Part shown: piece after piece, positions 2,804 to 52,517 of the stretch | Layout of the letters: each line of letters starts with the position of its first letter | Numbering within the stretch: the stretch's first letter is position 1 | From: an uncultured Elusimicrobia bacterium | GTDB taxonomy: Bacteria > Elusimicrobiota > Elusimicrobia > JACQPE01 | DNA: 64,000 bases | Assembly (NCBI GenBank): GCA_964357255.1 | Contig: CAYHKQ010000002.1 | Span: 727 to 64,726, forward strand | Direction: 5' to 3' | The notes under the pieces: model-generated | The model's database searches: none | The model's input: the letters and a program-made list of their open reading frames with translations, nothing else | What the model was told of the DNA's origin: nothing | Position numbers and translations under genes: made by a program

Positions 2804-2825
2804 ACCATTTGAAAGGAGATTATAA

Positions 2826-4019
2826 ATGACCGATAAAGAACTTGAAGCGCTCCTCGATGACATTGAATCGGACCGCGCGGAGCGTAAAGAATCACCATCG
2901 GACACGGGCAAAATCAGGCAAGCCATCTGCGCTTTCGCCAACGATATGCCAAATCATCGCCAGCCCGGCGTTTTATTCATCGGAGCCGACGATCTGGGAA
3001 ATCCCGTTGGACTCTCGGTAACAGAACAATTGATCCAAACGCTCTCGTCCATACGCTCGGATGGAAATATCCTGCCGCTTCCCGTCATGACCGTGCAAAA
3101 GCGAAAGCTTAAAGGGAAAGATTTGGCTGTGGTCGTGGTGCAGCCTTCAGACGCGCCGCCCGTTAAATTTAAGGGAACAATTTGGATTCGAGTTGGTTCG
3201 AGCCGGGCCATAGCGAGTCCCGATGAAGAGCGGCGACTGAGCGAGAAACGTCGGCACAAAGACCTTCCATTCGACGTTCGTCCAGTGGAAAGCGCGAAGA
3301 TGAATGTATTGGATGAGTTGGCCTTTCGCCAAATTTATCTTCCGTTGGCCGTTGCCGAAGATGTGCTGCGGCAGAACCAGCGCACGCTCGAAGACCAGAT
3401 GCTCGCATCAAAGTTCGCGCATACGGGTCCTCCCGTATGTCCGACGAACCTTGGAATTCTTTCCATCGGTAAAACCCCGACGGATTGGATCCCGTGCGCC
3501 TATATCCAGTTCGTGCGCTTTGCGGGCGGAACCCTTACAGATCCCATTAAGACGTCAAATGAGATCCGCGGTCCATTGCCGGAACTGCTTAGGAAGCTTG
3601 ACGAGATACTCAAGATCAACATTCAGGAAGCCCTGGATATCACCTCCGCAGACAAGGAGATCCGCAGGCCCGACTATCCGCTGGAGGCGCTCCAACAGCT
3701 TGCCCGCAATGCCGTTCTGCACCGCTCTTATGAGAATACAAACGCCCCCATACACCTGTATTGGTTTGAAGATCGCGTGGAAATTCAGAATCCTGGGGGG
3801 CCCTTCGGAGAAGTCAATCGAATAAACTTCGGCAAGACGGGAGTATACGATTATCGGAATCTCCATATTGCTACGGTCATGAAGGAATTGGGCTATGTTC
3901 AGCGATTTGGCATTGGGATTGAATTAGCGCGTAAGGCCTGCAGGGTCAATGGAAATCCGGATCCGGATTTCGCTGTAGAGGATACGTTCATAAGCGTAAC
4001 GTTGAGGAGGGCTTCATGA
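2826..4019 (+). CDS. AlbA_2/Schlafen-like putative DNA-binding protein with a C-terminal HATPase_c_4 (RecG-like C-terminal) domain
   Basis: The N-terminus is typical of AlbA_2 (KIRQAICAFANDMPNHRQPGVLFIGADDLGNPVGL). The C-terminus is RecG-C/HATPase_c_4-like (LARNAVLHRSYEN, RVEIQNPGGPFGEV). A GGAG ribosome-binding site precedes the start. The stop overlaps the next start (ATGA at 4016-4019). Confidence 0.6.
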   Translation: MTDKELEALLDDIESDRAERKESPSDTGKIRQAICAFANDMPNHRQPGVLFIGADDLGNPVGLSVTEQLIQTLSSIRSDGNILPLPVMTVQKRKLKGKDLAVVVVQPSDAPPVKFKGTIWIRVGSSRAIASPDEERRLSEKRRHKDLPFDVRPVESAKMNVLDELAFRQIYLPLAVAEDVLRQNQRTLEDQMLASKFAHTGPPVCPTNLGILSIGKTPTDWIPCAYIQFVRFAGGTLTDPIKTSNEIRGPLPELLRKLDEILKINIQEALDITSADKEIRRPDYPLEALQQLARNAVLHRSYENTNAPIHLYWFEDRVEIQNPGGPFGEVNRINFGKTGVYDYRNLHIATVMKELGYVQRFGIGIELARKACRVNGNPDPDFAVEDTFISVTLRRAS

Positions 4020-38255: not shown

Positions 38256-39054
38256 TATCGGCAATACCAATATCACGATTGGCCTTTACGAGGGCCAAAG
38301 TCTCGGGCCTCGATGGAGACTCGCCACCAATCACGACAGAATGCCCGATGAGTTTGGGCTAGACCTTTTAGGGCTTTTGTCGCATCAAAAAATCCCGTTC
38401 ACACTGATCAACAACGTCATTATCGCCTCAGTGGTGCCGCAACTAACCGGCAAATTTAAGGAAGCGTGCCAAAAATACCTCAACTGTGATCCCTTAATCG
38501 TGGACGCAGGGGTCCGCACGGGAATCCGCATCCGCTATGACGATCCCAAAGCGGTCGGCGCGGACCGCGTGGTGGACGCCGTGGCCGCGCATCAACTCTA
38601 CGGCGGCCCGGCCTGCATTGTGGATTTCGGCACAGCCACGACTTTTGACGCTATTTCAGGAGAAGGCGATTATTTAGGCGGCGCTATCGCCCCGGGAATC
38701 TCCGTTGCGGCCGATGCCCTGTTTCTTCGAACCGCCAAACTACCCCGCGTAGATTTTTCCAAGCCGCCCTCGGTGATCGGCAAAAACACGGCTCATTCTC
38801 TGCAATCCGGATTGTTCAACGGGTATATCGCCCTGGTGGAAGGAATGGTTGAGCGCTTCCGCCGTGAATTGGGAGCCCAGATGAAAGTCATCGCCACCGG
38901 CGGCTTGGCCGAGCTCCTGGCCCCGGAAACAACGGCTATTCAAATCGTGGCCCCCTGGCTGACGCTCGAGGGCTTACGGCTGATTCATGAAATGAACCGC
39001 GTCCATCAACCGGTTCTTAAATCCAATAAAACCAGAACCGCGGCTCTTGCATGA
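38239..39054 (+). CDS. coaX: Type III pantothenate kinase
   Basis: It has the CoaX motif LLTIDIGNTNITIGL. Confidence 0.8.
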   Translation: MLLTIDIGNTNITIGLYEGQSLGPRWRLATNHDRMPDEFGLDLLGLLSHQKIPFTLINNVIIASVVPQLTGKFKEACQKYLNCDPLIVDAGVRTGIRIRYDDPKAVGADRVVDAVAAHQLYGGPACIVDFGTATTFDAISGEGDYLGGAIAPGISVAADALFLRTAKLPRVDFSKPPSVIGKNTAHSLQSGLFNGYIALVEGMVERFRRELGAQMKVIATGGLAELLAPETTAIQIVAPWLTLEGLRLIHEMNRVHQPVLKSNKTRTAALA

Positions 39055-40268
39055 TTTTAAAAAACAAGCGCATTATTCTTGGCGTCACCGGCAGCATCGC
39101 CGCGTATAAAGCCGCGGACTTAGCCAGCAAGCTAGCTCAAGCCGGAGCCTTGGTGGATACGGTTTTAACCCAAGCCGCCGAGCGTTTTATCTCACCGCTC
39201 ACATTCCAGTCCGTCACAGGACGTCCGGCCTTCACAGACGGCGATCTTTGGAACGGACAATCCCATGTGCTCCATCAGCAACTGGCCGCAGGCGCCGGTC
39301 TTCTCATTATTGCTCCGCTCACGGCTCACACGCTGGCCAAGTTGACCCAGGGCTTGGGCAACGATTTGCTAAGCCTGGTCGCTTTAAGCGCCGATTGCCC
39401 CCTTCTTATTGCGCCGGCCATGGACGGCGGTATGTGCAAACATCCGGCGGTTCAAGAAAATTTACGCCTTTTAAGGGAGCGCGGCGCCGTCATTGTCGGG
39501 CCCGAGCATGGACACCTGGCCTCAGGTTTAGAGGCCGTGGGCCGCATGAGCGAACCTTCGGAAATTTTAGGTCAGGCCCGCTATCTTTTGTCGCGCTCCG
39601 GCCCTTTAAAAAACCGGGTCGCGGTGATCACGGCCGGAGGCACTCAAGAGCCCGTGGACCCGGTGCGAGTTTTGGCTAATCGTTCCTCCGGCAAACAAGG
39701 GTTTGCCTTGGCGCAAGCCGCTCTTGACGCCGGAGCCCAGGTAATTTTGATTGCCGGCCCAACCGCCTTGTCGACTCCCATTGGAGCCCAGCGAAAAAAC
39801 GTCCACACGGCAGAGGAAATGGCCCATGCCGTGCTCCATGCCTGCCATGAGGCGGACGCCTTGATTATGACGGCCGCTGTCGCTGATTTTAAGCCCTCCC
39901 AACCCGCGCGCCAAAAAATCAAAAAAGACAATGGTTTGGCCGCTATTGACCTGGAACCAACGCCGGATATTTTAAAGCTTATCGAACGCCAGCGCCGCCA
40001 AACAGGATTCCCAAAAATTGTGATCGGCTTTGCCGCGGAAAGCGAATGCCTTATCGAAAACGCCATGGCTAAACTTAAGAATAAAAATCTTTCCCTCATC
40101 GCGGCCAACAACGTCTCTGACGAAAATTCCGGCTTCGGCGCGGATGTCAATCAAGTCACCTTAATCGGCGCAGACGGCGCCGTAGAACCTCTCCCCAGGC
40201 TCCCCAAAACCGAAATCGCCCAAAAAATTATCCAACGATTGCTCGGGCTCCTGGCCAATTCCTCTTGA
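39051..40268 (+). CDS. coaBC: Bifunctional phosphopantothenoylcysteine decarboxylase / phosphopantothenate-cysteine ligase
   Basis: It has a flavoprotein N-domain (ILGVTGSIAAYKA) and a CoaB C-domain (ITAGGTQEPVDPVR). Confidence 0.85.
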   Translation: MILKNKRIILGVTGSIAAYKAADLASKLAQAGALVDTVLTQAAERFISPLTFQSVTGRPAFTDGDLWNGQSHVLHQQLAAGAGLLIIAPLTAHTLAKLTQGLGNDLLSLVALSADCPLLIAPAMDGGMCKHPAVQENLRLLRERGAVIVGPEHGHLASGLEAVGRMSEPSEILGQARYLLSRSGPLKNRVAVITAGGTQEPVDPVRVLANRSSGKQGFALAQAALDAGAQVILIAGPTALSTPIGAQRKNVHTAEEMAHAVLHACHEADALIMTAAVADFKPSQPARQKIKKDNGLAAIDLEPTPDILKLIERQRRQTGFPKIVIGFAAESECLIENAMAKLKNKNLSLIAANNVSDENSGFGADVNQVTLIGADGAVEPLPRLPKTEIAQKIIQRLLGLLANSS

Positions 40269-40337
40269 AAGCCTCCTCTGGAGGTAGCGGCCCCCAATCA
40301 AACCCTTTTCAATAAGTAAATTTTTCTAATTTATGTC

Positions 40338-40856
40338 CTACTTGCCTCCCGAATGGAAAGAGCTCAGGCAGTTGATTCTCCAAAGAGACTTCAGGCGTCG
40401 TATAAATTCATTAAAAACCGGGGGGGTCTTGAATTTCAGTAAGCCGGGGACGTTTTCCATCGAAACTATATCGGGCTGAATCTTTTCAATGAGATCGGCG
40501 AAGTTATAAAGAAGGCTCCATTTGTCGCCCTTAGGCTTCTTGCTAGTGTAGCCAGAAAACGGTTGACACGGAGCGCATCCGACCAATATTCGCGTGTGTC
40601 CTTTCGGATACAGAGCGTTAATTTCGCTGGCCTTTATGTCCCGCACGTCGCACTTAATGAATTTTGCGACGTTATTTTTTTCATAGGAATATTTGCACGT
40701 GGGATCATTATCGATACCGGCCGCGATATTAAATCCTTCCTTAACGAAGCCATGTGTCATGCCGCCAGCTCCACAAAACAGATCAATGACGCTGACTGGA
40801 TGAGGTGGGCTGCCAGCACGTTTACGAACATCCCTTCTCTTTCTAAAAATAGTCAT
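40338..40856 (-). pseudogene. C-terminally truncated DNA cytosine-5 methyltransferase fragment (motifs I, IV and VI only)
   Basis: It has DLFCGAGGM (motif I), GCAPCQPFS (motif IV) and ENVPGLL (motif VI). The ORF stops after about 172 aa. Only 70 nt remain before coaBC, so the target-recognition domain and motifs VIII-X are absent. Confidence 0.6.
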
Positions 40857-40857
40857 G

Positions 40858-41280
40858 CTAAAAACAGCGTATCGCACTCCAAATCCTAAAAATATGGCTT
40901 TCCGGGTCGTTTTTAACGTCATGTTCCCAGATTCTTATAACTTTCCAACCCAAATTTCGAAGCCGACGATTTATCTGGCGATCCCTTCTTCTGTTCGCTG
41001 TGATCTTTTGAATCCAAAATGCCGCGTTGGTCGATGGAGTCAAATTGCGGGAGCACTTCGTGCATCCATGCCAAAAGCAACCATCAATAAATAGGCTCAA
41101 CCGATGTGCAGGGAAAACAAAGTCGGGGGTACCTGGAAGACCTGGAAGATGTGATCTCCATCCACTTATATGATGAACACGTAGTAAGCGGCGAATGGCC
41201 ATTTCCGTAGATTTTGTTCCACGCCCCTTGATTGCGACCATGATCTTGGAGCGTTTTTTTGCGGTAAAAACGTCTGCCAT
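40858..41280 (-). CDS. vsr: Very-short-patch repair endonuclease
   Basis: It has the MADVFT...RSKIM N-terminus, LPGTPDFVF and FIDGCFWHGC. The start was chosen at MADVFT. Confidence 0.8.
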   Translation of the reverse strand: MADVFTAKKRSKIMVAIKGRGTKSTEMAIRRLLRVHHISGWRSHLPGLPGTPDFVFPAHRLSLFIDGCFWHGCTKCSRNLTPSTNAAFWIQKITANRRRDRQINRRLRNLGWKVIRIWEHDVKNDPESHIFRIWSAIRCF

Positions 41281-41391
41281 CTTATTTCTCCAACCCTGAA
41301 TATTTCCCGTTCCCATAAATATTCTCACGCATTAAGTAGTTACCCAATTTTATTTTTTGACTTTGCGGCCAATCGTATCCATTTTGATCTC

Positions 41392-42501
41392 TCATCTGGC
41401 AATGACGAGGATACCTGCCGGACGTCGATTGGCGAGCAGTTTTACCAAAGAAGACTTCGGGGGGCACACCCCTAGACGAATGATGTCCTGAAACGACGGT
41501 TTGTTTGGAGTCCCGTCGGGGCGAATTGGCCCCGCGAACAATTTTCCTTGGGCTAATTCCACAACGCCATGTTTCTTCTCCATATCGGTCCCGTAAGACA
41601 ACGCCATTACGTTGACTTCGGAGGTTCGCTCGGCCAGAAATTGGCGCAGGTCCAGCGCCGTCGATCTCGATATGTAATCCACGAGCACGTCCTGCAGAAT
41701 CCAAAAAGCTGTTCCGCCCCAACGAATGGCTATCTCTGACTTAACCACCAGCTGGCTGACCATCCGTGCCCACACCTGCCGGTAATTGATGCCTGGTGCT
41801 TCGTGCTCCTTCCCAAGGATTGCATCCTCGAAGGACATTGGGATGGTATTTCTTTTGGTCTTGTTGCCTCCCGATGTGCTGCAGGTCATGATTTCAACAA
41901 GCATCGGTTCTCCGTAGGGAAAGTCCTCTACAAAATACTTGCCTTCTCTTCGCGCCATTGAGTACCCCGCGCTTTCGGCGGCATCCCTGACGAGCCCCCA
42001 TTTTTGCCCAGTATCACTTTCAACGTCGCGCTGGGAACGCCGGCCAAGCGGCATCACGATATAATCGAAAGCGTAGTCGAAGGTCCTCCTTGTCCCATCA
42101 TCGGACATTTCGAATTTCAATTTTACTTCGGGCCAGACGCCTAGCCTCGTCCCGGGGCGGTACTTGCTGTGCTTCAGGAGAAAGGATTTGGTCGCGTCCT
42201 GGTGGCGAGGCGCTTTTCCTCCATGCGACGCCAAGACCATGAGGCGTCTTGGACAAACGATCCAGGGGGCTTCATTGGGGCGGGGCTGGATCGAGCATAC
42301 GCCAGAAGGGACGACCTTTTTGCTTGGAAAGTAGCGTTGCAACCCCGGCTTGCCGGCAAGGGTGACATTTGAAAGATAGCGATTCCCGCCGCCGTCGCAA
42401 TCGAGACCTGAAAACGGACATAGCGCCGCCTTGCGGCAGGCCTCCGCCTCGGGCGACCTGTCGGTTATGCGGTGACCAAAGAGTTCGTAGATTTTCGGCA
42501 C
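41392..42501 (-). CDS. Putative type II restriction endonuclease with an N-terminal Cys-rich region (possibly NotI-like)
   Basis: It overlaps the upstream C5-methyltransferase by 37 nt. The N-terminus is FGHR...CPFSGLDCDGG, with WIVCPRR and the candidate catalytic segments DYIVMP and EIMTCS. The NotI resemblance is from memory only. Confidence 0.45.
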   Translation of the reverse strand: MPKIYELFGHRITDRSPEAEACRKAALCPFSGLDCDGGGNRYLSNVTLAGKPGLQRYFPSKKVVPSGVCSIQPRPNEAPWIVCPRRLMVLASHGGKAPRHQDATKSFLLKHSKYRPGTRLGVWPEVKLKFEMSDDGTRRTFDYAFDYIVMPLGRRSQRDVESDTGQKWGLVRDAAESAGYSMARREGKYFVEDFPYGEPMLVEIMTCSTSGGNKTKRNTIPMSFEDAILGKEHEAPGINYRQVWARMVSQLVVKSEIAIRWGGTAFWILQDVLVDYISRSTALDLRQFLAERTSEVNVMALSYGTDMEKKHGVVELAQGKLFAGPIRPDGTPNKPSFQDIIRLGVCPPKSSLVKLLANRRPAGILVIAR

Positions 42502-43613
42502 GTGATAACCTTGACGATCTGTTGAGCAATGGCCCGAGCTACTGGGGGAGGAACAGAATTCGCTACCTGCCGGTGCTGATCCAGGTCTCGAACGGTTCCG
42601 GTTCTCCTTCTAATCGGCCCCTTCAATACATACGAGTCAGGATATCCATGAAGCCGCAGGTACTCTCGCGGCGTAAGGTAGCGGTCCTTGATTGGATGGA
42701 AGAAAATCTCACCGCATCTAAGCGTGTTTGAGGCCTTGTTTCTAGCCAAACGCCGAAACTTCGTCGAATCTTTTAGCTTCAGATTCATCACCTGATCTTT
42801 TGGCAAATGCAATTGCGCGCCAAGGTAGCTCCCCTCAGGCACGCCCTGCATCCTCTCTATCTCTCTTTTCGGCGTAACGTCCACGTGGCTGTCCTCGCGG
42901 AGCTTGCCGCTCTTGATCTTTTTTCCAGGCTTCCCCAAATCCCTGATCGCCTCGTCTACCGTCACATAGGGCATCAGAGGGAATAACGAGTCAACGCGGT
43001 CTTCCGGCCCATGAGTCGGCGAAGGAAACTCAAATCCATTCGGCTTTTCTGTCGCAACGATGAACACGCGTTCTCGCAATTGGGGCACGCCAAAATCTGC
43101 GGCCTTTATTACTCGCCACTTGGGAACATAGTCTATGTCCTCAAGTTTCGATAGGACAAGATCGAACACTCCGCCCCTGCGGCCTTTCTGATCCGGAGCC
43201 GTCATTAGCCCTTTAACTTGCTCGAAGAGAATCGCCTTTGGCCTAAGTGCTTCGGCAAATCGGATGAGTTCGAAAATCAACAAACCACGCGGATCGGAGA
43301 GCGAGCCCTGCTTGCCGATTTGAGAAAACGGTTGGCAGGGCGGACCGCCAAATAGTAGGGCGAGCTCACCACGCACAAGTCCAACCTCCTTCCTAATTTC
43401 CTCTGGGTTTGCGTTCCTGACGTCGCCTTCGAACACCTTCGTTCTGCGATTCTCTCTAACAATATTTGTCCGGAGAGTATCGCAGCAGTGACGATCTAGC
43501 TCGAAGCAGGCAAGCACATCAAACCCAGCGCCTGTGACCCCAATATCCATTCCACCGGCACCCGTGAACAGCGAGATCGCCGACATTCTTTTCATCACAT
43601 TTCTACTATTCAT
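42465..43613 (-). CDS. DNA cytosine-5 methyltransferase (complete)
   Basis: It has LFTGAGG (motif I), GGPPCQPFS (motif IV), EQVKGL (motif VI), QLRERVFIV (motif VIII) and ANSVPPPVARAIA (motif X). Confidence 0.85.
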   Translation of the reverse strand: MNSRNVMKRMSAISLFTGAGGMDIGVTGAGFDVLACFELDRHCCDTLRTNIVRENRRTKVFEGDVRNANPEEIRKEVGLVRGELALLFGGPPCQPFSQIGKQGSLSDPRGLLIFELIRFAEALRPKAILFEQVKGLMTAPDQKGRRGGVFDLVLSKLEDIDYVPKWRVIKAADFGVPQLRERVFIVATEKPNGFEFPSPTHGPEDRVDSLFPLMPYVTVDEAIRDLGKPGKKIKSGKLREDSHVDVTPKREIERMQGVPEGSYLGAQLHLPKDQVMNLKLKDSTKFRRLARNKASNTLRCGEIFFHPIKDRYLTPREYLRLHGYPDSYVLKGPIRRRTGTVRDLDQHRQVANSVPPPVARAIAQQIVKVITCRKSTNSLVTA

Positions 43614-43824
43614 GGAAATTTTTAGGACACTTTGCCTATCTTTAACATGTGAGTAAACATTCTATTGAATTATGTGGGGCATCATCCGGATTGCGGTATT
43701 TATTTTATCGTACGCACGCAGGAGTCTGCTTCCCTCGCATCTATTTGATCGTTGGGGTTCAGCTTAAAACTTGAACTTTTCCTCAAACGAAGGTAGCACC
43801 TCTAGCTCGGCCTTGGGCTGGGCG

Positions 43825-44295
43825 ATGGAGGTACTTATGGAAAAATCGAAAAAATATCTGCCGGAGATAACCCCAGAAGAAAGGGGAGCGCAGATCGTTG
43901 AATTACTGGCGGCAGCCGCTGTGCGGCTTGCCAGAAAACAGAAAGCCACGGGGAAGGAGGTTTCGGCTACTGAACCGAGAGTTTCCGGGGAGGTTGTTAA
44001 AATCACTGTTTCAAAACCTATCCCCAAAGAGATCGTTATTGACCTTCCCCCATTTCAAAAAGGACGTATACCCTTTGGGGAAAGTCGGGCCGGTCAAGGC
44101 ATAAGGAAAATAAACGCCACCGAATTGTCCTGGATGAAACGAATCCTGGCCTGGGCCTCCGAGGGTCACTCGCTGGCCAAGATTGTGGGAAGGCTGAATA
44201 AAGAAGATCATGAGACTAGATACGCCGGTAAATGGAATAGAGCCAAGGTCTGGTGGGTCTTAAAAAGGGCAAAAGAGCAGGGCACCACAGAATAA
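43825..44295 (+). CDS. Small HTH-domain protein (resolvase-type HTH-like), paralog A
   Basis: The C-terminus is SLAKIVGRLNKEDHETRYAGKWNRAKVWWVLKR. It is about 45% identical to the 49430-49858 product, and the two share a leader. Confidence 0.4.
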   Translation: MEVLMEKSKKYLPEITPEERGAQIVELLAAAAVRLARKQKATGKEVSATEPRVSGEVVKITVSKPIPKEIVIDLPPFQKGRIPFGESRAGQGIRKINATELSWMKRILAWASEGHSLAKIVGRLNKEDHETRYAGKWNRAKVWWVLKRAKEQGTTE

Positions 44296-44504
44296 CCCCG
44301 TAGCGACTTACCCATCTTACCTGGATTAAATTGGCCAAGGCTTGGGTTGTTCATTTCAAAATAGTCCCATTCGTCAAATAATCCTCCTGGCCGCTAAAAA
44401 AGATATGAGCGCCAAAAATCCTGCCCGGGTCCAACGGTAATAGAAAAAGTTTCGCTGACCGTCCAACATCTGACCCCGAGTCCAACGGTATCAGAAACCG
44501 ATTA

Positions 44505-44993
44505 TTGCAATTAAACCCACTTTTATTCCTGGAAAACGATCCCGACGGGCCTTTGCTGTGGGATGAATCCCATTTTGAAATCGTTAGGCTTGCCAAGGGC
44601 CAAAAAGTCATGTTGTCGCCCGATGAAGCCCAAGCCATAAAACAACACCAGCGCCGCTACCGGGAACCGCGCCCGCCTCGGATTCAGCTTCTTCTAAGGC
44701 AAACTTATCGCCTGAAGGGCCGCCTGGACGGGACCCCTGGCTTAACCCGCGATGCTTTGGCTGGGGAGGCTGACATTAGCCCCTCCTACCTGACTCGAAT
44801 CTTAAATCTTCTTAACTTGGCACCGGAAATCCAGCGGCACATTTTGGCCATACCACCATCCGCAAAACAGGGGTCGATCACGGAGCATCGGATAAAACAT
44901 TTAACCCGAAACGGAAATTGGAAGTTTCAGATCAAAGAGTTTGATCATCTCCTCGACCTAAACGGCAAAAGTAGGCCCGCCGTCCCCATCTAA
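44505..44993 (+). CDS. ParB-HTH-like DNA-binding protein (no ParB N-terminal domain)
   Basis: It has ISPSYLTRILNLLNLAPEIQRHIL, which resembles the ParB HTH region. It is preceded by a direct-repeat array. Confidence 0.4.
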   Translation: MQLNPLLFLENDPDGPLLWDESHFEIVRLAKGQKVMLSPDEAQAIKQHQRRYREPRPPRIQLLLRQTYRLKGRLDGTPGLTRDALAGEADISPSYLTRILNLLNLAPEIQRHILAIPPSAKQGSITEHRIKHLTRNGNWKFQIKEFDHLLDLNGKSRPAVPI

Positions 44994-45002
44994 TTTTTGG
45001 AT

Positions 45003-45040
45003 ATAGAACAATTTATTGAACACTTGACATATCGTTCTAT
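45003..45040 (+). promoter_or_regulatory. Palindromic operator overlapping a TTGACA -35 box upstream of the LexA-like gene
   Basis: atagaac (45003-45009) and gttctat (45034-40) are exact reverse complements separated by 24 nt. TTGACA lies at 45024-29 and taacat about 18 nt downstream. Confidence 0.4.
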
Positions 45041-45060
45041 CATCTGGTAACATTATCTCA

Positions 45061-45672
45061 ATGGCGCAAGTCCAGTTAAACCCAATTCAAAATAAAATTT
45101 TGAAACTCATGGAGCGGAATATCGAGGAGCCGCTTTCTTACCGCGATCTGGCTAGAGAAGTTGATGTTGCGTCAACCAACACCATCGCTTATCACCTCCG
45201 CCTGCTTGAAAAAAAGGGATACCTTAAACGCGATCCGGTCAATCCGCATGGCTATGCTGTGCTAATCAAGCCGGAAACCGGCGTGGCTTACCTTAATCTT
45301 TACGGGTTAGCCCATTGCGGACCAAGGGGGTCATTGTTGGATGGCCATCCCATTGATAGGCTGCCTGTCGCGGCGCGCATGATTCCTTTTTCCGTAGCCG
45401 ATGCTTTTTTAGTTAAAGCCAAAGGGAATTCGATGGAACCGCGAATTTATGACGGGGATATTGTCGTGGCCAAAAAACAAAATATCGCCGAAACAGGCGA
45501 CCTTGTCGTTTGCGTAAATCAAGGCGAATCTCTGATCAAAAAAATCAAGCGAGAAAAGCATGGAATTATTCTTAGCTCGCTAAACACAAAATACGAACCC
45601 TTTTTGGCCTCCAAGGAAGATTTTCGAATCGAAGGAACAGTGAAGGCAATAATTTCCAAAACGGTGGCATAA
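45061..45672 (+). CDS. LexA-like repressor (winged-helix domain plus S24 peptidase domain)
   Basis: The N-terminal wHTH is LSYRDLAREVDVASTNTIAYHLRLLEKKGYL. The C-terminal S24 Ser/Lys dyad region is KAKGNSMEP...VVAKK. Confidence 0.7.
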   Translation: MAQVQLNPIQNKILKLMERNIEEPLSYRDLAREVDVASTNTIAYHLRLLEKKGYLKRDPVNPHGYAVLIKPETGVAYLNLYGLAHCGPRGSLLDGHPIDRLPVAARMIPFSVADAFLVKAKGNSMEPRIYDGDIVVAKKQNIAETGDLVVCVNQGESLIKKIKREKHGIILSSLNTKYEPFLASKEDFRIEGTVKAIISKTVA

Positions 45673-45674
45673 TA

Positions 45675-46631
45675 ATGGAAGATATGGCAGGAACGCTTTT
45701 CTCTAAAGTTAATCCAGTTGGGAAAATTATGCGGAATTATAATCCCGATGCCGCCGCAACGCTTTATCTTGGCGATCGCCTTGAATTGCTTAAACAAATT
45801 CCTTCCAAATCAGCCAGACTTATCGTAACGTCACCGCCTTACAATATCGGCAAGCAATACGAAAAAAGAACAAGCCTTGAGGATTACCTGCGGGGCCAAG
45901 AGGAAACCATAACGGCATGTTATGAAGTGCTTGCTGACGATGGTAGTTTATGCTGGCAGGTCGGTAACCATATCAGTCTTGACGGCGAAGTTTATCCGCT
46001 CGACATTTTGATTTACCCCATCTGCAAAAAATTAGGCCTTAAACTCCGCAATCGTATCGTCTGGACCTTTGAGCATGGCTTGCACTGCACCAGGCGGTTT
46101 TCCGGCCGCCACGAAACGATCTTGTGGTTTGCGAAATCAGATCAGCACATTTTTAATCTGGATCCGGTTAGAATTCCACAAAAATATCCAGGTAAAAAAT
46201 CGTTCAAGGGTCCTGATAAAGGAAAATTTACGTGCAACCCCCTTGGGAAAAACCCCGGAGACGTTTGGGTAATTCCAAACGTAAAAAATAACCATATCGA
46301 AAAAACCATTCATCCTTGCCAATTCCCAATAGAACTCATTGAGCGTTTGGTGCTAAGTATGACCAGTCGGGGCGACTTGGTGATTGATCCATATATGGGT
46401 GTGGGCAGCGCCCTTTGTGCGGCTGTCCGGCATGGCCGGCGTGGAGCGGGTGCTGATATTAATAAGGACTACCTGGATGTTGCCAGGCAGAGGGTTACAT
46501 TAGCGGTTCAGGGTTTGCTAAAAACTCGACCAATGGGGAAACCTGTTTATACCCCTAACGGCAATTGCAAGTTGGCCAAGCCGCCTAAAGAGTTTGAGTT
46601 GCTCCGCAAGGAAGCCTTGCTGATTTCCTAA
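45675..46631 (+). CDS. DNA methyltransferase, N4-cytosine or N6-adenine (beta class)
   Basis: It has the catalytic TSPPY and the AdoMet-binding region DPYMGVGSA. It starts 3 nt after the LexA-like gene. Confidence 0.8.
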   Translation: MEDMAGTLFSKVNPVGKIMRNYNPDAAATLYLGDRLELLKQIPSKSARLIVTSPPYNIGKQYEKRTSLEDYLRGQEETITACYEVLADDGSLCWQVGNHISLDGEVYPLDILIYPICKKLGLKLRNRIVWTFEHGLHCTRRFSGRHETILWFAKSDQHIFNLDPVRIPQKYPGKKSFKGPDKGKFTCNPLGKNPGDVWVIPNVKNNHIEKTIHPCQFPIELIERLVLSMTSRGDLVIDPYMGVGSALCAAVRHGRRGAGADINKDYLDVARQRVTLAVQGLLKTRPMGKPVYTPNGNCKLAKPPKEFELLRKEALLIS

Positions 46632-46637
46632 TCCCGT

Positions 46638-47348
46638 CTATTTCGGACCAGGCTTAGTTTTCTTCCGAGGCCGGTCGGCCTCTTTCGCAGCATAAAGTGC
46701 CTGGGGATTCTCAAGAAACCGGCGTTGTTTTTCCTCTTTGGCTTTTTCTTCTGCGTCGGTTAAGCCAATTCCAAGAACTAATACCGGAATGTCAATGTTG
46801 GAAACGCCGCGCTCCTTGAAATCAATTAAAATTTGCTCGAACTCAGAGACGCCAGTAGACATTTCGTGAGCTAGAGAACTATAGGCCACGATCTCGATGC
46901 CGCAGTCAATAAAACCCCTTTTATGAAAAATGATCATCTTTGAAAAAATGTCATATCCCATGAAAGCGTATTTGCCGAACTGGATTTCAAGACCCACTTT
47001 GTTTTTAATACCATCCATTTCGCGGAAACGGTTTTCGCCAAAGCCAATGCGAGGTTCCTTGAATTTTTTCTTTTTACCAGTCGCGGCTTCCGTCCATCCT
47101 AATGGGTGCAGGAAAGTTTTGATTTCTTCGTTCAGAATCGCCGGCGCAAACAACAGGTGGTTCGGCATGGTTTTTTCCTCGCTGACCTTGCGCAGGCATT
47201 CAATGGCTTTCGTTTGAGTTATGGCATTAACCACGTCTTGATATTCAGCGGGATGAGTCGAGCGGATAAACTTTTCTCCGCCATTGAAGGAATAGGTTTC
47301 GATAATTTTCACAGCCCATAGTTTACATAGTAAAAACTTTGAGACCAA
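46638..47348 (-). CDS. BglII/BstYI-family type II restriction endonuclease (tentative)
   Basis: It has DGIKNKVGLEIQFGK, a D-x8-E-x-Q arrangement like the BglII active site. It is convergent with the methyltransferase. Confidence 0.5.
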   Translation of the reverse strand: MVSKFLLCKLWAVKIIETYSFNGGEKFIRSTHPAEYQDVVNAITQTKAIECLRKVSEEKTMPNHLLFAPAILNEEIKTFLHPLGWTEAATGKKKKFKEPRIGFGENRFREMDGIKNKVGLEIQFGKYAFMGYDIFSKMIIFHKRGFIDCGIEIVAYSSLAHEMSTGVSEFEQILIDFKERGVSNIDIPVLVLGIGLTDAEEKAKEEKQRRFLENPQALYAAKEADRPRKKTKPGPK

Positions 47349-47451
47349 AAACTAAAATGGGGGAATAATCCCTCGTTTCCTCTTAGAATGCCTGGGGTTA
47401 TAGGCAGAGGTTTCGTAGGTTGCCAGATACGGTCGTTTTGGACAGAAAGGA

Positions 47452-47997
47452 TTAAAAGGAAAGAGAGGACTGCAGGCCGCGTGAACCGGCGGGAAATTTA
47501 CGCTTGTAGATTCCCTTATACAGCACGGCCACGACGTCGATAATGGCTTGTAGGCCTCGCGAAACGCTTCGCTCATCAATAACCGGAGCATCCTTGGGAT
47601 GCGCCAACTTATTTCTGAGCAATTGAGCAGATTGGAGGTCGGACCACCAACTTGAACTTCGATCAATCGACTTCCCTGAGAATCGGCGATAAAGAAATTG
47701 GATTCTGTCATCCAAACGGTATATCTTCAACTTGGCTTTTTCGATAACAAATTCTCCATGGCTCAATTGAATATCCTTTTCAGTAAGAATAGAGCGGTCG
47801 GTGAGGCTGAGGTCTTTTCGAGTAAGAAAATCGTCGGCGATTGCGTTGACATGTGCCTCGAGGCTGCAGAATCCTAGATTCAGCGCAGCGTGAAGATACG
47901 CCGCTTTTCCATCTACGCTCATCTCAGACTGGGCCTTTTCTAGAAAACGTTTGGCTTCTTCCAGGAGAACGCCAGAAATTTCGTCGACGGCTGCCAT
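47452..47997 (-). CDS. HEPN-domain protein
   Basis: An Rx4H motif (LLRNKLAHP) lies in the C-terminal helix. It sits immediately downstream of the DGQHR gene. Confidence 0.5.
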   Translation of the reverse strand: MAAVDEISGVLLEEAKRFLEKAQSEMSVDGKAAYLHAALNLGFCSLEAHVNAIADDFLTRKDLSLTDRSILTEKDIQLSHGEFVIEKAKLKIYRLDDRIQFLYRRFSGKSIDRSSSWWSDLQSAQLLRNKLAHPKDAPVIDERSVSRGLQAIIDVVAVLYKGIYKRKFPAGSRGLQSSLSF

Positions 47998-47998
47998 C

Positions 47999-49321
47999 TT
48001 AGGCTTTTCCCTCAGCCTTCAGAACCTCTAATTGCGCCTGCTTGGCGTGGTATTTCTTTATTGCCAGATCTACCATGGTAGCGTTGATACCCTCGCCCTT
48101 TTCGGCTTGGGAACAGAATAGCTCAACAAAGCGCCCACGCTCCTTCGCATCTGTGCGGTAGCCTAAACCACGGTAGTTCTCGGGATCAGTTTTATGCTTC
48201 CCCTTCGCCAAGACGGCAGCATTCAACGGGTCCTTCCCTGTGGCTGCCTTGAGATTGTAATGCCTTACGAGGCGTGCCTGGTTCTTGTGAAGCACCCCTG
48301 TCACGTAGGCCCAAGCGGACAAGATGGCGAAGTTCAGGGTCTTCTCTGCATAATCTCTATTGCTGCCACCTTTCTTCCCCGACCATGCCGCTCTTTGGGC
48401 GAGGATCAACTGGGAAAATTCTTTACCTGCTTCCAGCAGTTTTGAGTCTTCCCAAAGCCTGGGATGCCTTTTTTTTAACATCTCCCACTCATCAGCCGCG
48501 TCGCCGGAACCGCAGATTATGGGAGTAGTATCCGTCGTGTCAAACTTGCTGTCATCTATCACCTTTCCTTGGAGATAGTTCATAATAAATGTTCGCGCGG
48601 TCTGAACCGTGACGGCCGCCCCCCGTTCACGTTTGGAAGAAAAATCCTTCCCCTCTGGGAGCAACCCGGTCATGTGACACCAGTTTCGCAATTCCGGACC
48701 TCGGACCGTCTCCTGCATCCGATCGATAAGGTCGCGCGATACGGCTATGGTGGTATTTGAAATCAACTGGACATCAAGGCGCTGATCTGTGTCGAGACCG
48801 AAGTAGACCTTGACGCCGTGATATTCGTCTACCTGTTGCTCCTCGAAGGCTATCCTAATCGCCTCAAATCGGTGCTGACCTCCAATTATCTTGAGTGGCT
48901 TCTCGGGATTGTACTGGTTCGTATATTCAGCAACGATGTTGCTAAAGCTCCGACGATTCCTAGCGTCCTCCTGCATTTTTGAAAATGCAACGTGGTCAAC
49001 TTCGATATCTCGATTTGCCCGATACTCAGCTTGCTCCTCAGGATCAAGGGGAACATCAATCGTCCCAAGGCTTATGAGCTTGCTAGCAAGAATATGGCAT
49101 TCGCAATATCGCGACAGGTTGATCGCGTCCGTCAAAACAAGAAATTCATTCCCCGCTTCTAGTGGAACGAACTGCGCGATGAATTCTTTGACGATCGGGT
49201 CAACTGTCGGGAGCGACTTATTTACCCCGACAGGTACCCGGTGCTTAATTGAAACTCCCGTGTCGTTTGGCATCAAACTCCTCCTCAATCGTGATGTTTC
49301 ATGGTCCGCCTCTTGGGCCAT
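47999..49321 (-). CDS. DGQHR-domain protein (DndB/ParB-like)
   Basis: It has KIIGGQHRFEAIRIA (a DGQHR-type motif). The protein is 440 aa. Confidence 0.55.
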   Translation of the reverse strand: MAQEADHETSRLRRSLMPNDTGVSIKHRVPVGVNKSLPTVDPIVKEFIAQFVPLEAGNEFLVLTDAINLSRYCECHILASKLISLGTIDVPLDPEEQAEYRANRDIEVDHVAFSKMQEDARNRRSFSNIVAEYTNQYNPEKPLKIIGGQHRFEAIRIAFEEQQVDEYHGVKVYFGLDTDQRLDVQLISNTTIAVSRDLIDRMQETVRGPELRNWCHMTGLLPEGKDFSSKRERGAAVTVQTARTFIMNYLQGKVIDDSKFDTTDTTPIICGSGDAADEWEMLKKRHPRLWEDSKLLEAGKEFSQLILAQRAAWSGKKGGSNRDYAEKTLNFAILSAWAYVTGVLHKNQARLVRHYNLKAATGKDPLNAAVLAKGKHKTDPENYRGLGYRTDAKERGRFVELFCSQAEKGEGINATMVDLAIKKYHAKQAQLEVLKAEGKA

Positions 49322-49429
49322 ACACCCGTTTGTCTTTATCTCAATACCAACAGTGTTGGCATGATCATAAAATCCTTGACCTGTTGCTTTAACGAAGGTA
49401 ACACCTCTGACCCGGCCTGAGGCCGGGCA

Positions 49430-49858
49430 ATGGAGGTATCTATGGAAAACTGGAGAAAATATCTTGATCCTGACGACATAACGCCCGAAGAGCGCGAAGA
49501 ACGTGTCATTGAGCTATTGGCAACCGCAGTTGTGCGGTTGATGGGGGACGAGAGAAAAGAAGAAACAAAACCACCCATCTTAGTCTCGCCTTCTCAATCG
49601 GAAATCGCTCATGCGCCGCTCGTTAAGGGACGAATTCCTTTCGGACAGGAAACCGGCGGTATGGGACGGGTTTTTAATGAAACGGAAACTCGCTGGATTA
49701 AAAGAATCCAAGAGCTGGCAGCGCAAGGCTGGTCCTCGGAAAAAATCGCGCGGCAGCTGAACCTGGAAGATCATGAGAGTAAGCGCGCCGGCAAATGGTC
49801 CAGGACAGCAGTTTGGCGAATTTTGAAAAGGCTCAAAGAAAAAGGCGTTACAGAATAA
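49430..49858 (+). CDS. Small HTH-domain protein, paralog B
   Basis: It has KGRIPFGQE...WIKRIQELAAQGWSSEKIARQLNLEDHESKRAGKWSRTAVWRILKR. The leader includes a perfect hairpin cccggcc-tga-ggccggg. Confidence 0.4.
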   Translation: MEVSMENWRKYLDPDDITPEEREERVIELLATAVVRLMGDERKEETKPPILVSPSQSEIAHAPLVKGRIPFGQETGGMGRVFNETETRWIKRIQELAAQGWSSEKIARQLNLEDHESKRAGKWSRTAVWRILKRLKEKGVTE

Positions 49859-50018
49859 TTTTGTAACGCCTGGCCTTTTTTGTCTTGCCCGCTTGAATAT
49901 TTTGCCGTGCTAGTCGTTTTATTTTTTTGTCTCATTTAGTTCATTTCTCGACGGAGTTTCTAGTACCGTCAAACCTGCTCATTCAAAAACCGTTACAAAT
50001 CAACCCTTTTAGACCAAA

Positions 50019-50189: not shown

Positions 50190-52517
50190 TTACTTCTGTC
50201 CCCGATGGCTTTGGAATTGTTTGAGCTCATCCAGGCGTTGGGCAAAATCAGCCACGTCGGGGTAGCGGCTATTCAGGCCCTCATAAAGCTCGGTCTTTTT
50301 TTTGAGGGCGTCCGGCTGATCGCCCGGCGCCTTAAACTCTTCATAAAGCCAAAGAACCGTGTTCCAAGCCGGAGGGAGCTTGGCCGCTTCCTCCTGGGAC
50401 ACTACATTATAGAGAAAGAGCGGGGATTTGGATTTATAAAACTTCTCGGGAATGGCATCCTCGCGTAACAAGCGCACATGGCCACGCCACATCCGGCAAA
50501 ACAAGGCCAGGGTGGATTCCGGCCAATCCATTATGCCGTAGCCGAGCACGCGCCGGCCTTCCAAAAGATTGACCAGGATATGCGTGATGCCCTCCCGACG
50601 AAATCTTTGATACAACTGCTCGGGCGAAGAAAGCCCCAGGGACCATTGAGCGGGCAAAGCCACATCAAAGACACCGGATGCCAAAAAAGGAATATGACAA
50701 CTCGCCACTTTTTCATCGCCTAAAATTAAAAGCTTGCTACCGGCGGGCAAATTTTTCTTTGACCATTCATACAGCGCGGTAGAGGGCTGGGGATACATGC
50801 CGGGGTGGGTGTACGACAAGAACTCCTGCGGCGTTTCCGCGCCCAAAAGCGCTGGCCAAGGATGATAGGAGGAGGGAATTGTTTGAAAGGCCGTGAGCAT
50901 ATTAACCCCGGCCATCAGCGTTGCTAAGATATGAAAAGCCCATCGCCGAAACGGCGTAGCGGCGCCCTCCTCGCAGATCAAACCAACCGGCATCACCAAA
51001 ATTGCCAGATAGGGCAACCAGTACCGTGTCAGGCGATTAATCGCGGCCACGCCGAGGCAACCGCAAAGACCTAAAAGAAAAATCATTTTCATCGGCGTTG
51101 AAACATCCTTGCGGGCAAAGAGCCCCCACGCGGCGACCGGAAAAACCGCCAACACGAAAGGGCCGGGGAAGGAAAGCGAAGACCCCCCCTCAAAGGCGAG
51201 TCGCCACGGCAACCGGCACCACTGCCAAAATGAATCAGGGGTCATGCCCCGGTTCTCCGCGTACACGTGCGCCATGCGCGCGGGGTCAATGCTGGCGAAA
51301 AAACTGCCGCCAAACGGAAACACGGGATTGCCCGTAAAAATATAGGCGCGAATAAGCCAAGGCAGGGCCATGGCAAAAGAGACCACTCCCATAAAAAAAC
51401 ATTCCCGGATGACGCCGCGGATCGCTCGACGCGCAACAATTCCCCACGCCAAATGAAACACGGGCAACAGCGCCATGACCAAGCCCGCGGTTAATTTGGA
51501 GCCAAAACACAGGCCCCCAAAAATCCCCGCCAGCGCCAATAACGAGCGGTCCGCGGACTCCTCGGGCGAATCTATAAAACGGAACCAGCACCACGCGCCG
51601 GCCAAAGCAAAAAGACTGACTCCGACATCAGTGCCGGTGCTCCACCAATTCCACATCACCATGGGCATGCTCAAAAAAATAAGGGCGGCCCAGGGACCGG
51701 CGCGGGGGCGACGCTCCTCGTTGGACCAGGCAATCAGGCCCAGCATAATCAAGACCCCGCAGGACCAATGCACTAACTTGGCCGCGGTGTCGCCGCTTAA
51801 GGCCAAGCCAACGAGATAAAGCATGGACATGGTCAACGGATAGTTGGCATGAAGATTCGGATATTCCTTAATCCCGCCCATGAGCAAATACCAACGGGGA
51901 ACACCCAGGTGATAAACATGGGAGTCGTAAAAAATCTCGGGAACAAAAGCCAATAGGAAAGCCACGGCCACCATAATCAGGAGCGGCAGAACAAGCAAAA
52001 GCGAAGAAGCCTTGAGGCTCACCAAAAGTTCGCCAAGCGCATTTTCTATCAAGGCGCCCAACTGCGGCTTTAAGCGCCAGAAAAACAATCCGGCGAGCCC
52101 CGCCCAAAGTAGGGCAAGAATCCAGGTGCGATAAAGCCCGAGGGCGCCCAGCAAATAAACCGCATACGCGACGACTCCCAAGCCGAGCGCGTTTGCAATA
52201 ACAAGACGGCCCAAGGCTGAACGGTTGAAGCGCTCGCCCAAAATCCAGGCGCCCAGCGCCAGGGATCCCGCTAAAAGACCTGCGCCCACGGCCAAACCGC
52301 GCAGATGCCGCCCCAGAGCCGCCAGCGTTGGAAAGCCCGGCGGCCAAAATTCATTAAGCACGGGAAGGAGATTTACGGGCGCCGAACGATGGACGTAGCT
52401 CAATGCCACGAAAGCCATCCACGCAAGACCGGCCCACCAGCCAAATTCGACCCAAGGAAAGACAGCCGGACCGACGATTGTGTCCGGCATCCGGCGTTCC
52501 CGCGATTTACGGCTCAT
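50190..52517 (-). CDS. Large polytopic membrane protein, putative GT-C glycosyltransferase (ArnT/PMT-like)
   Basis: It has more than 12 predicted TM helices and a C-terminal soluble domain. It is followed by AsnB-like and GT2 genes. Confidence 0.35.
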   Translation of the reverse strand: MSRKSRERRMPDTIVGPAVFPWVEFGWWAGLAWMAFVALSYVHRSAPVNLLPVLNEFWPPGFPTLAALGRHLRGLAVGAGLLAGSLALGAWILGERFNRSALGRLVIANALGLGVVAYAVYLLGALGLYRTWILALLWAGLAGLFFWRLKPQLGALIENALGELLVSLKASSLLLVLPLLIMVAVAFLLAFVPEIFYDSHVYHLGVPRWYLLMGGIKEYPNLHANYPLTMSMLYLVGLALSGDTAAKLVHWSCGVLIMLGLIAWSNEERRPRAGPWAALIFLSMPMVMWNWWSTGTDVGVSLFALAGAWCWFRFIDSPEESADRSLLALAGIFGGLCFGSKLTAGLVMALLPVFHLAWGIVARRAIRGVIRECFFMGVVSFAMALPWLIRAYIFTGNPVFPFGGSFFASIDPARMAHVYAENRGMTPDSFWQWCRLPWRLAFEGGSSLSFPGPFVLAVFPVAAWGLFARKDVSTPMKMIFLLGLCGCLGVAAINRLTRYWLPYLAILVMPVGLICEEGAATPFRRWAFHILATLMAGVNMLTAFQTIPSSYHPWPALLGAETPQEFLSYTHPGMYPQPSTALYEWSKKNLPAGSKLLILGDEKVASCHIPFLASGVFDVALPAQWSLGLSSPEQLYQRFRREGITHILVNLLEGRRVLGYGIMDWPESTLALFCRMWRGHVRLLREDAIPEKFYKSKSPLFLYNVVSQEEAAKLPPAWNTVLWLYEEFKAPGDQPDALKKKTELYEGLNSRYPDVADFAQRLDELKQFQSHRGQK

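Follow-up and report, generated by a model that had tools for sequence, protein, structure and literature searches.

Two adjacent genes on the minus strand of a 64,000-nt stretch of DNA from an uncultured Elusimicrobia bacterium (contig CAYHKQ010000002.1, positions 727 to 64,726; hereafter the window) raise the question of what a ParB-like protein and a HEPN-domain protein, encoded side by side at 47452-49321, might do together, and whether they would do it independently of their neighbors. We refer to the two genes as A and B. Operons and fusions that combine ParB and HEPN domains have been predicted to be conflict systems (PMC3710099, PMC3632139), and an entry that reads "Ribo L-PSP-HEPN ... 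operon with ParB" is found in Table 1 of Anantharaman, Makarova, Burroughs, Koonin & Aravind 2013 (PMC3710099). That entry is very probably the same gene pairing, and the pairing itself is therefore not new. Based on the analysis described below, we see an even chance that the pair is an autonomous, horizontally mobile conflict module, in which A would be a nucleotide-dependent, DNA-engaging switch that licenses the HEPN ribonuclease (RNase) B.

Linkage and autonomy of the two genes

Gene A (47999..49321, minus strand) is a 440-aa open reading frame (ORF) that contains PLKIIGGQHRFEAIR; we take its product to be an enzyme of the DUF262/DndB/AIPR branch of the ParB/Srx superfamily, whose helical C-terminal half is conserved. 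An identical database protein (P0001; L083/L084) has been called as 424 aa, and the start of gene A is therefore probably Met17 (49273), giving a product of 424 aa. The GGQHR box of A lies at 48869..48883 (minus strand; residues 147-151 of the 440-aa ORF), in the sequence context KIIGGQHR. Gene B (47452..47997, minus strand) encodes a 181-aa HEPN-domain protein of the RiboL-PSP-HEPN type, predicted to be a metal-independent endoribonuclease, whose catalytic motif R128-N129-x3-H133 (RNKLAH, in LLRNKLAHPK) is located at 47599..47616 on the same strand. At the A/B junction (47995..48013, minus strand), a Shine-Dalgarno-like GAGGGA (48013-48008) sits 11 nt 5′ of the gene B ATG (47997-47995) and is followed by the A stop codon TAA (48001-47999) and a single spacer base (47998); this layout suggests that the two genes are translationally coupled. 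A scan for promoters and terminators at the locus was no higher than background (7 promoter-like sites vs 6.5 expected). An initial annotation, made from the letters of the window, had described a 440-aa protein with an IIGGQHR motif that is followed, after 1 nt and on the same strand, by a 181-aa protein with an Rx4H motif, and its coordinates, motifs, and spacing were all correct. Since database searches returned 1433 relatives for A and 445 for B at E <= 1e-3, and both motifs (GGQHR in A, Rx4H in B) are invariant in 30-sequence alignments, A and B are, as judged from their sequence conservation, real genes and no chance ORFs.

The linkage of the two genes was followed across 82 A loci from genomes and metagenomes, with spacing measured across 68 loci. 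In 73 of the 82, A is immediately followed by B in the same orientation, and the nine exceptions consist of five contig edges and four truncated or fragmented copies of A. All five copies on viral contigs likewise have B beside A, and we regard the linkage as obligate. Spacing is mostly -4, -1, or <=3 nt, and overlaps of 4 or 1 nt dominate. The pairwise distances of A and B co-vary (r = 0.67, Mantel p = 0.001), with a mean identity of 55% for A vs 42% for B, and the catalytic motifs have been kept in both proteins (GGQHR in 111 of 114 unique A copies, RNxxxH in 85 of 89 unique B copies). Frameshifted copies in five metagenome-assembled genomes (L068, L071, L072, L078, and L082) may be assembly or sequencing errors and were left unused as evidence of toxicity.

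No third conserved gene was found in the 82 loci, where the top apparent clusters turned out to be antisense shadow ORFs within A and B. Similarly, the 140 nearest neighbors of the pair in 79 genomes are spread over 117 Pfam families, none of which is found in more than three neighbor proteins. Because no third gene is conserved and no neighbor family recurs, A and B form an autonomous, self-contained two-gene unit. The families listed for the 140 neighbors include no dnd-type family, none is present at 40-56 kb of the window, and no ssp or dpd genes adjoin the pair. The view that the pair is distinct from the full dnd and ssp clusters was thus well founded, and its relatives (82 loci, 140 neighbors) belong to no larger conserved cluster.

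Domain identities of A and B and the partners of the A core

Direct scans of the A and B proteins of the window gave no Pfam, PADLOC-DB, or NCBIfam match at E <= 0.1, and searches of PDB sequences with A and B singly, and with the alignment profiles A1, A2, and A4, returned only noise (colicin, designed helical repeats, PsaN). The relatives of B were more informative. PF18735 (HEPN_RiboL-PSP) was matched by 21 of 30 of them at 50-60% identity, and the four members examined singly cover nearly the full model, with P0141, at 28.5 bits, just passing the cut-off of 28.4 and the remaining three at 25-27 bits. By these profile matches, we would place B in PF18735 at the family level, borderline by score. 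The AlphaFold2 (AF2) model of B (predicted local distance difference test [pLDDT] 91, predicted template-modeling score [pTM] 0.87) is a helical bundle, with long helices and a β-hairpin insert. When compared with the PDB by Foldseek, it matched the AF_0298 HEPN protein (probability 0.94, target TM 0.59), the HepT toxin (probability 0.96, target TM 0.63), and the HEPN domain of Csm6, at E values of ~0.2-0.4. Residues R128, N129, and H133 are invariant in the B alignment (A2). The family matches of the relatives, the HEPN-like fold, and the invariant motif residues all agree with the original assignment of the 181-aa protein to HEPN, and we regard B as a HEPN protein of the RiboL-PSP type that is predicted to be catalytically competent. 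The last ~13 residues of B (47452-47490, minus strand) are modeled with a pLDDT of ~55, yet include the invariant residues P169, S177, and the terminal F181, and Phe is the final residue in 61 of the 89 unique B homologues. This tail could serve as a docking or modification motif for the partner.

The relatives of A show weak similarity to the DndB, DGQHR, and DpdB models, and the DndB and DGQHR models match at the region of the GGQHR box. PF14072 (DndB) was weakly matched by 23 of 30 relatives (best E = 0.01), and in the six members examined it scored 13-15 bits vs a cut-off of 29.1, over ~20-43, mostly 20-30, residues around GGQHR. Likewise, 11 of 21 diverse members gave a weak match to TIGR03187 (the DGQHR domain), the best at E = 1.8e-4, and in those examined individually it reached <=16.7 bits vs a cut-off of 58.85 and extended up to model positions 78-189 of 276. 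In addition, the Asp of DGQHR is replaced by Gly in the 111 unique copies that carry the box. A therefore falls short both of DndB (the PF14072/TIGR03233 cut-off) and of the DGQHR domain (the TIGR03187 cut-off and the D-G-Q-H-R motif); the profile matches speak for remote, sub-threshold homology to the DGQHR domain and against membership of either curated family, DndB or DGQHR. When 1.84 billion representatives were searched exhaustively with a profile, only 321 clusters were found, and among the 150 clusters listed there was no bridge to DndB, DUF262, or any other family. By these searches, the A family is compact and isolated in sequence space.

More can be said about A at the level of its predicted fold. 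In the AF2 model (pLDDT 84), a strand (143-147) is followed by a helix (149-162), and the GGQHR box is located at the strand-to-helix junction. A Foldseek search of BFVD, a database of predicted viral structures, gave 11 matches at E <= 1e-3, nearly all with a probability of 1.00, including three GmrSD-N (DUF262) proteins, one "DNA-sulfur modification-associated" (DndB-type) protein, and one HNH-domain protein. Matches with weaker E values were to AIPR, DUF262, and ParB-like nuclease proteins, and to further GmrSD-N and DndB-type proteins; taken together, the matches to GmrSD-N/DUF262, DndB-type, and AIPR proteins range from E <= 1e-3 to 2.5e-3, with a probability of about 1.0. In the PDB, the top meaningful matches were the N-domains of ParB-CTPγS, PadC, and KorB (probability ~0.8, E > 0.1). 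Based on the model, we assign A at the fold level to the DUF262/GmrSD-N/DndB/AIPR branch of the ParB/Srx superfamily, and its GGQHR box is the counterpart of the phosphate-binding or catalytic Arg box of ParB/Srx proteins, DUF262 (DGQQR), and DndB (DGQHR). The initial label of "DGQHR (DndB-like)" was therefore overstated with respect to the sub-threshold profiles and the GGQHR box, and it was sound with respect to the fold. The profile check suggested at the time, that is, whether the 440-aa protein is a DGQHR/ParB-fold protein, came out positive at the fold level only, the protein of the window itself having no Pfam or NCBIfam match.

The GGQHR box is invariant in alignment A1, as well as in A4, which spans different architectures, and both alignments contain many invariant charged residues across both domains of A. 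The C-terminal helical half is conserved as strongly as the N-terminal half. We considered that the former might hide a cryptic HEPN domain and rejected the idea, given an hhalign probability of <0.1% against the HEPN partner family. A Rhodanese match (PF00581) at the N-terminus of 11 of 30 members (best E = 1.5e-3) was judged to be spurious; it covers model positions 10-64 of 102 and is devoid of the catalytic Cys loop. The segment "vLvDaRt.arYcECHI" is located at A residues ~40-90 (window ~49050-49200, minus strand), and its E-C-H triad is nearly invariant in all architectures.

Divergent members of the A family retain the whole core (ECH, NR, DA..GR.F, P.K..GGQHR, SNTNI, DR..E, DPL, and YRG..R in alignment A4) and combine it with other partners. 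In one group of proteins (513-541 aa), the core is fused to an N-terminal zinc-ribbon HNH endonuclease, with PF01844 at or above its cut-off in three of the four Pfam-positive proteins. The four HNH-core fusions examined are solo genes, and six-frame translation of their loci gave no match to the B profile. One fusion, P0245, lies at 5001-6542 of L086 (Logan SRR19627839 contig) in an apparent Mu-like prophage with a faint GemA match and many small unassigned ORFs, with an N6_N4 methyltransferase (MTase) ~750 nt upstream on the opposite strand. A scan of viral contigs for HNH-core fusions returned matches to the HNH part only. Other cores, of ~470 aa, have an N-terminal ribbon-helix-helix (RHH)-like extension (weakly matched by RHH_6 in P0251, E = 0.01) and are followed directly, or with an overlap, by an MTase (N6_N4_Mtase in L090; Dam-type D12 in L094, L106, and L116), or by a divergent HEPN protein. 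In L107, the gene after the RHH-extended core encodes an MvaI/BcnI-like type II restriction endonuclease (REase; 2299-3048), and in L104 a YhaM-like 3′-5′ exoribonuclease (5500-6480) comes after a core whose N-terminal extension is unclassified. A tight MTase-core-HEPN order is found in L110, with looser versions in L108 and L125.

The partners of the A core are thus exchanged. As HNH is found exactly where HEPN is missing, the core seems to control a nuclease, without delivering the damage itself; and as some of its partners are MTases, it seems to engage DNA whose methylation state matters. Together, the partner series suggests that the core is a reader of DNA state that controls interchangeable nucleases. 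The coupling of the same core to HNH and to MTases in sister clades is new in this analysis and refines the idea of a pair.

A proposed mechanism and its alternatives

We found 86 matches in 185,579 species genomes, at 51-63% identity and in at least 12 phyla. The taxa with the pair include Acidobacteriota, Planctomycetota, Alpha-, Beta-, and Gammaproteobacteria, Verrucomicrobiota, Bacteroidota, Ignavibacteria, Bacillota, Actinomycetota, Chloroflexota, and Nitrospirota, among others. Such a rare occurrence across phyla at 51-63% identity indicates, from sequence comparison, horizontal spread of the pair under strong purifying selection. In one Burkholderia contig a phage-type integrase adjoins the pair, and other copies of the pair are carried by genuine prophage contigs, which also encode terminase, tail sheath, and tape-measure proteins. 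In a divergent lineage it adjoins an AccI/Eco57I-type restriction-modification (R-M) system and a MazE gene, and an 85%-identical relative has an NspV-type REase near the pair. Elsewhere, the nearest neighbors include AbiH, Schlafen/AlbA_2, ResIII, Vsr, PIN, a C5 MTase, and a PstI-type REase.

The domain logic of such a pair is established. According to Makarova et al. 2013 (PMC3632139), DndB is a fusion of a ParB-like domain to HEPN, and fusions of COG1479/DUF262 to HEPN, HNH, or PD-(D/E)xK nucleases are frequent. ParB+HNH enzymes of the GmrSD/BrxU type are established restriction factors (PMC12839542). The type IV enzymes GmrSD, BrxU, and SspE (a DUF262 NTPase plus the HNH-like nuclease DUF1524) resemble the pair in coupling a nucleotide-binding domain with a (D/G)GQ(Q/H)R box to a nuclease, in the match of the A model to GmrSD-N proteins, and in the HNH fusions of A relatives. 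In contrast to these enzymes, the nuclease in the window is a HEPN RNase encoded by a gene of its own, A matches neither DUF262 nor DUF1524 in Pfam and has no nuclease domain, and the HNH of its relatives is an N-terminal zinc-ribbon PF01844 domain and not a C-terminal DUF1524. DndB (PF14072/TIGR03233) and DpdB, the DGQHR-domain proteins of the phosphorothioation and 7-deazaguanine systems of DNA, share with A the superfamily branch, a near-identical box (DGQHR vs GGQHR), and weak profile and fold similarity, and DndB would also share the pairing of a ParB-like with a HEPN domain, in its case within one polypeptide (Makarova et al. 2013). However, A scores far under their cut-offs, its C-terminal half is unlike its HEPN partner, and dndCDE/dptCDE and dpdA are not among its neighbors.

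Two further systems are close in organization. In HepT-MntA (type VII), a HEPN RNase toxin is likewise under an upstream, co-translated enzyme partner, and HepT is among the best structural matches of B; but A has a predicted ParB/Srx fold, and the Pfam matches of A and its relatives include no nucleotidyltransferase family. AbiU (AbiUi and AbiUii; Dai et al. 2001, as reviewed in PMC13064643 and classified in PMC3632139) is a two-gene abortive-infection locus that delays phage transcription and is the only experimentally studied two-gene locus of a ParB-like and a HEPN protein (PMC13064643). Its likeness to the pair, a ParB/COG1479-class nuclease-like protein next to a HEPN protein, is one of domain composition only, and library scans, which involved no comparison with AbiU sequences, gave no AIPR or AbiU-type Pfam match for A or B. 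As for the 2013 table entry, it agrees with the pair in that the B family matches the whole PF18735 model, has an Rx4-6H motif, and has a ParB-superfamily neighbor (in the 73 loci and five viral contigs noted above). It differs in that one row of a table is all it comprises: the ParB partner is neither described nor given a Pfam model, experiments are not reported, and the HNH and MTase variants do not appear, and B of the window is itself under the Pfam threshold. The literature searched, including a full-text search on RiboL-PSP, contains no experimental work on the pair and PADLOC-DB holds no matching model, and the pair therefore appears to be experimentally uncharacterized within that literature. 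In the same literature, the isolated and unusually conserved A family and its series of HEPN, HNH, and MTase partners are undescribed.

The mechanism that we infer for the pair, like the sensor-effector arrangement put forward in the initial annotation, would operate as follows. A would act as a reader of DNA state and as a switch, and B, translationally coupled to A, as its effector. By analogy with the ParB/Srx superfamily, the GGQHR box of A may bind or hydrolyze a nucleoside triphosphate (NTP) while A engages DNA. The trigger would be DNA that is invading, unmethylated, or otherwise marked and is met by A, which would then license B, with its intact RNxxxH motif, to cut RNA. Cleavage of RNA would in turn cause growth arrest, or stop phage development, as in abortive infection. 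A module of this kind would most likely serve phage defense of the abortive-infection type, or be of the toxin type. In line with it are the integrase and prophage contexts, the defense genes among the neighbors, and the location of the pair in a low-GC island between two R-M systems in the window.

Several observations weigh against this proposal. Many neighborhoods of the pair consist of plain housekeeping genes, and no homologues were found in 72,556 plasmids or 50,697 GenBank phages. PADLOC-DB v2.0.0 has no model matching A or B, every sequence-profile match of A to a named family lies under threshold, and the Foldseek TM-scores of A are low (0.2-0.3) despite the high probabilities. A is also far more conserved than typical fast-evolving defense sensors, which fits a constrained enzyme better than a pathogen-recognition surface. 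In AbiU the polarity is opposite, in that the ParB-like protein alone gave resistance and the HEPN protein reduced it (PMC13064643). Finally, all steps of the mechanism rest on sequence and predicted structure.

We also weighed four other explanations. The scatter of the pair among housekeeping genes would suit a classical toxin-antitoxin addiction module, in which B would be the toxin, A would neutralize it by binding or by NTP-dependent covalent modification (cf. MntA-HepT), and the role of the pair would be to stabilize mobile DNA. ParB/Srx-fold enzymes include ATP-dependent phosphotransferases, such as sulfiredoxin. The gene order of regulator then toxin and the translational coupling are typical of toxin-antitoxin pairs, the RHH-like extension of some A relatives is typical of autoregulating antitoxins, the HepT toxin is among the best PDB fold matches of B, and the low-confidence tail of B, with its invariant P169, S177, and F181, is a possible docking or modification site. 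We nevertheless consider such a module unlikely. For an antitoxin, A would be unusual both in its size (424 aa) and in being better conserved than the putative toxin, it has no nucleotidyltransferase (MNT) signature, and its core does without HEPN when fused to HNH or paired with an MTase, so that neutralizing B cannot be its sole function. The reported polarity of AbiU, where AbiUi suffices and AbiUii (HEPN) dampens resistance, would instead favor a reading in which A is itself the effector, either a ParB-like DNase or an enzyme that degrades NTPs, and would target invading DNA or nucleotide pools, with B as a modulator or backup effector. ParB/Srx proteins are able to nick DNA and to hydrolyze NTPs (PMC10853773, PMC12839542), and AbiR, which includes a ParB-like subunit, is toxic when its cognate methylase is missing (PMC13064643). 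The conservation of A is strong, invariant charged residues being numerous in both domains, and the position of the RHH-extended cores, directly beside MTases or a type II REase, is the one expected of a restriction subunit. This explanation strikes us as slightly less probable again: a nuclease acting on unmethylated DNA would be self-toxic in the main clade, where an MTase could be detected within 5 kb of the pair at only 4 of 79 loci; the copies with a fused HNH are precisely those that have no HEPN, suggesting that the core needs a nuclease partner for killing; and the strong selection on the HEPN catalytic motif is unexpected for a mere modulator.

Two explanations that tie the pair to DNA modification are, in our estimation, very improbable. 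In one, A and B would be an accessory part of the adjacent BglII-type R-M system, making up a five-gene composite with its LexA-like controller, N4/N6 MTase, and REase (45061-47348). A, B, and the REase are indeed co-directional, only 103 nt separate B from the REase, that strand has no terminator-like site, the same arrangement is found in L083, and MTase-core-HEPN orders exist in the sister clade. However, the 85%-identical relative does not have that R-M system, there is no recurrent family among the 140 nearest neighbors in the 79 genomes, MTases are near the pair in only the four loci mentioned, and the REase, MTase, and controller already amount to a complete type II system. We have accordingly rejected the adjacent R-M system as a part of the unit. 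In the other, to which we attach just as little weight, A would be a DndB/DpdB-like accessory ATPase or regulator of DNA modification, and the pair would have a housekeeping or epigenetic role and none in defense. The remote similarity to the DGQHR, DndB, and DpdB models, the fold matches to "DNA-sulfur modification-associated" proteins, and the MTase partners in the sister clade could be read in this way; but no dnd, ssp, dpd, or other conserved modification gene adjoins the pair, a HEPN RNase has no obvious role in modification, and the rare, patchy, cross-phylum distribution speaks against housekeeping.

Returning to the proposal that A licenses B, a broader and more tentative version of it, which we think improbable at present, is that the ParB/DUF262-like core is a general reader of DNA state (for example, methylation) whose output can be supplied by different partners, namely a HEPN RNase encoded in trans, an HNH DNase fused in cis, or a protective MTase. 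The pair in the window would then combine DNA discrimination in the style of R-M systems with an RNA-cutting, abortive-infection output, a combination for which we found no characterized defense system in the literature searched. Still more speculative is a variant in which A would covalently modify the invariant C-terminal tail of B in an NTP-dependent manner, which would be a new chemistry of the type VII-like toxin-antitoxin kind.

The surrounding island and the significance of the pair

The pair is located in a low-GC island of ~10 kb (~40300-50000), with a GC content of 0.445-0.55 vs 0.55-0.57 in the flanks, bordered by a coaBC-like gene (39051-40268) and a gene for a 775-aa membrane protein (50190-52517). 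With two R-M systems and the A and B genes, it is a typical defense island. The first R-M cluster (40338-43613, minus strand) comprises a truncated C5 cytosine MTase fragment of 194 aa (40338-40922) that retains only the FxGxG and PCQ motifs, Vsr (40858-41328), a 369-aa ORF (41392-42501), and a full-length C5 MTase (42465-43613), all on the minus strand. Vsr was recognized from its own sequence and from the Vsr matches among neighbors elsewhere, with no profile scan, and the 369-aa ORF, which has no family match, is probably the cognate REase of the cluster. The second cluster consists of a LexA-like repressor with an S24 self-cleaving peptidase domain (45061-45672), which directly abuts an N4/N6 DNA MTase (45675-46631), and a BglII-like REase (46638-47348). 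The LexA-like and MTase genes are convergent to the REase, which is co-directional with A and B. It is unusual to find the classical C protein replaced by a controller of the LexA type, which could potentially respond to SOS induction. The adjacency of this BglII-type system to the pair is local, being present in L083 and absent in the 85%-identical relative.

The island also contains two ORFs with a Recombinase domain (PF07508), both on the plus strand. One (43771-44295, 174 aa) is divergent from the C5-MTase/REase/Vsr operon, and the other (49430-49858, 142 aa) is divergent from the A-B-REase operon. The two are paralogous (46% identical) and have only the PF07508 domain of large serine recombinases, without the catalytic domain, and their 5′ ends are in a 90-nt direct repeat of 80% identity (43770-43859 and 49375-49464). 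A Recombinase ORF accompanies A and B only in the window's own sub-lineage (L083, L084, L133, and L134), and we therefore rejected the ORF upstream of A as a component of the system; it could be a regulator, or the remnant of an element that mobilizes cassettes. Between the first of these ORFs and the LexA-like gene lies a 162-aa ORF (44505-44993, plus strand) with weak HTH_31, HTH_3, and ParB-HTH matches, which may be a further regulator of the island.

If A does license B as we propose, the pair would be a compact, two-gene immune or toxin module that is present in at least a dozen phyla and is missing from PADLOC-DB v2.0.0. The effector swaps of its core, between HEPN, HNH, and MTase partners, offer natural comparisons for asking what ParB domains of the DUF262/DndB type sense and how the nucleases coupled to them are controlled. 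Should the pair instead prove to be a plain toxin-antitoxin pair, A would still represent a new class of antitoxin for HEPN toxins.

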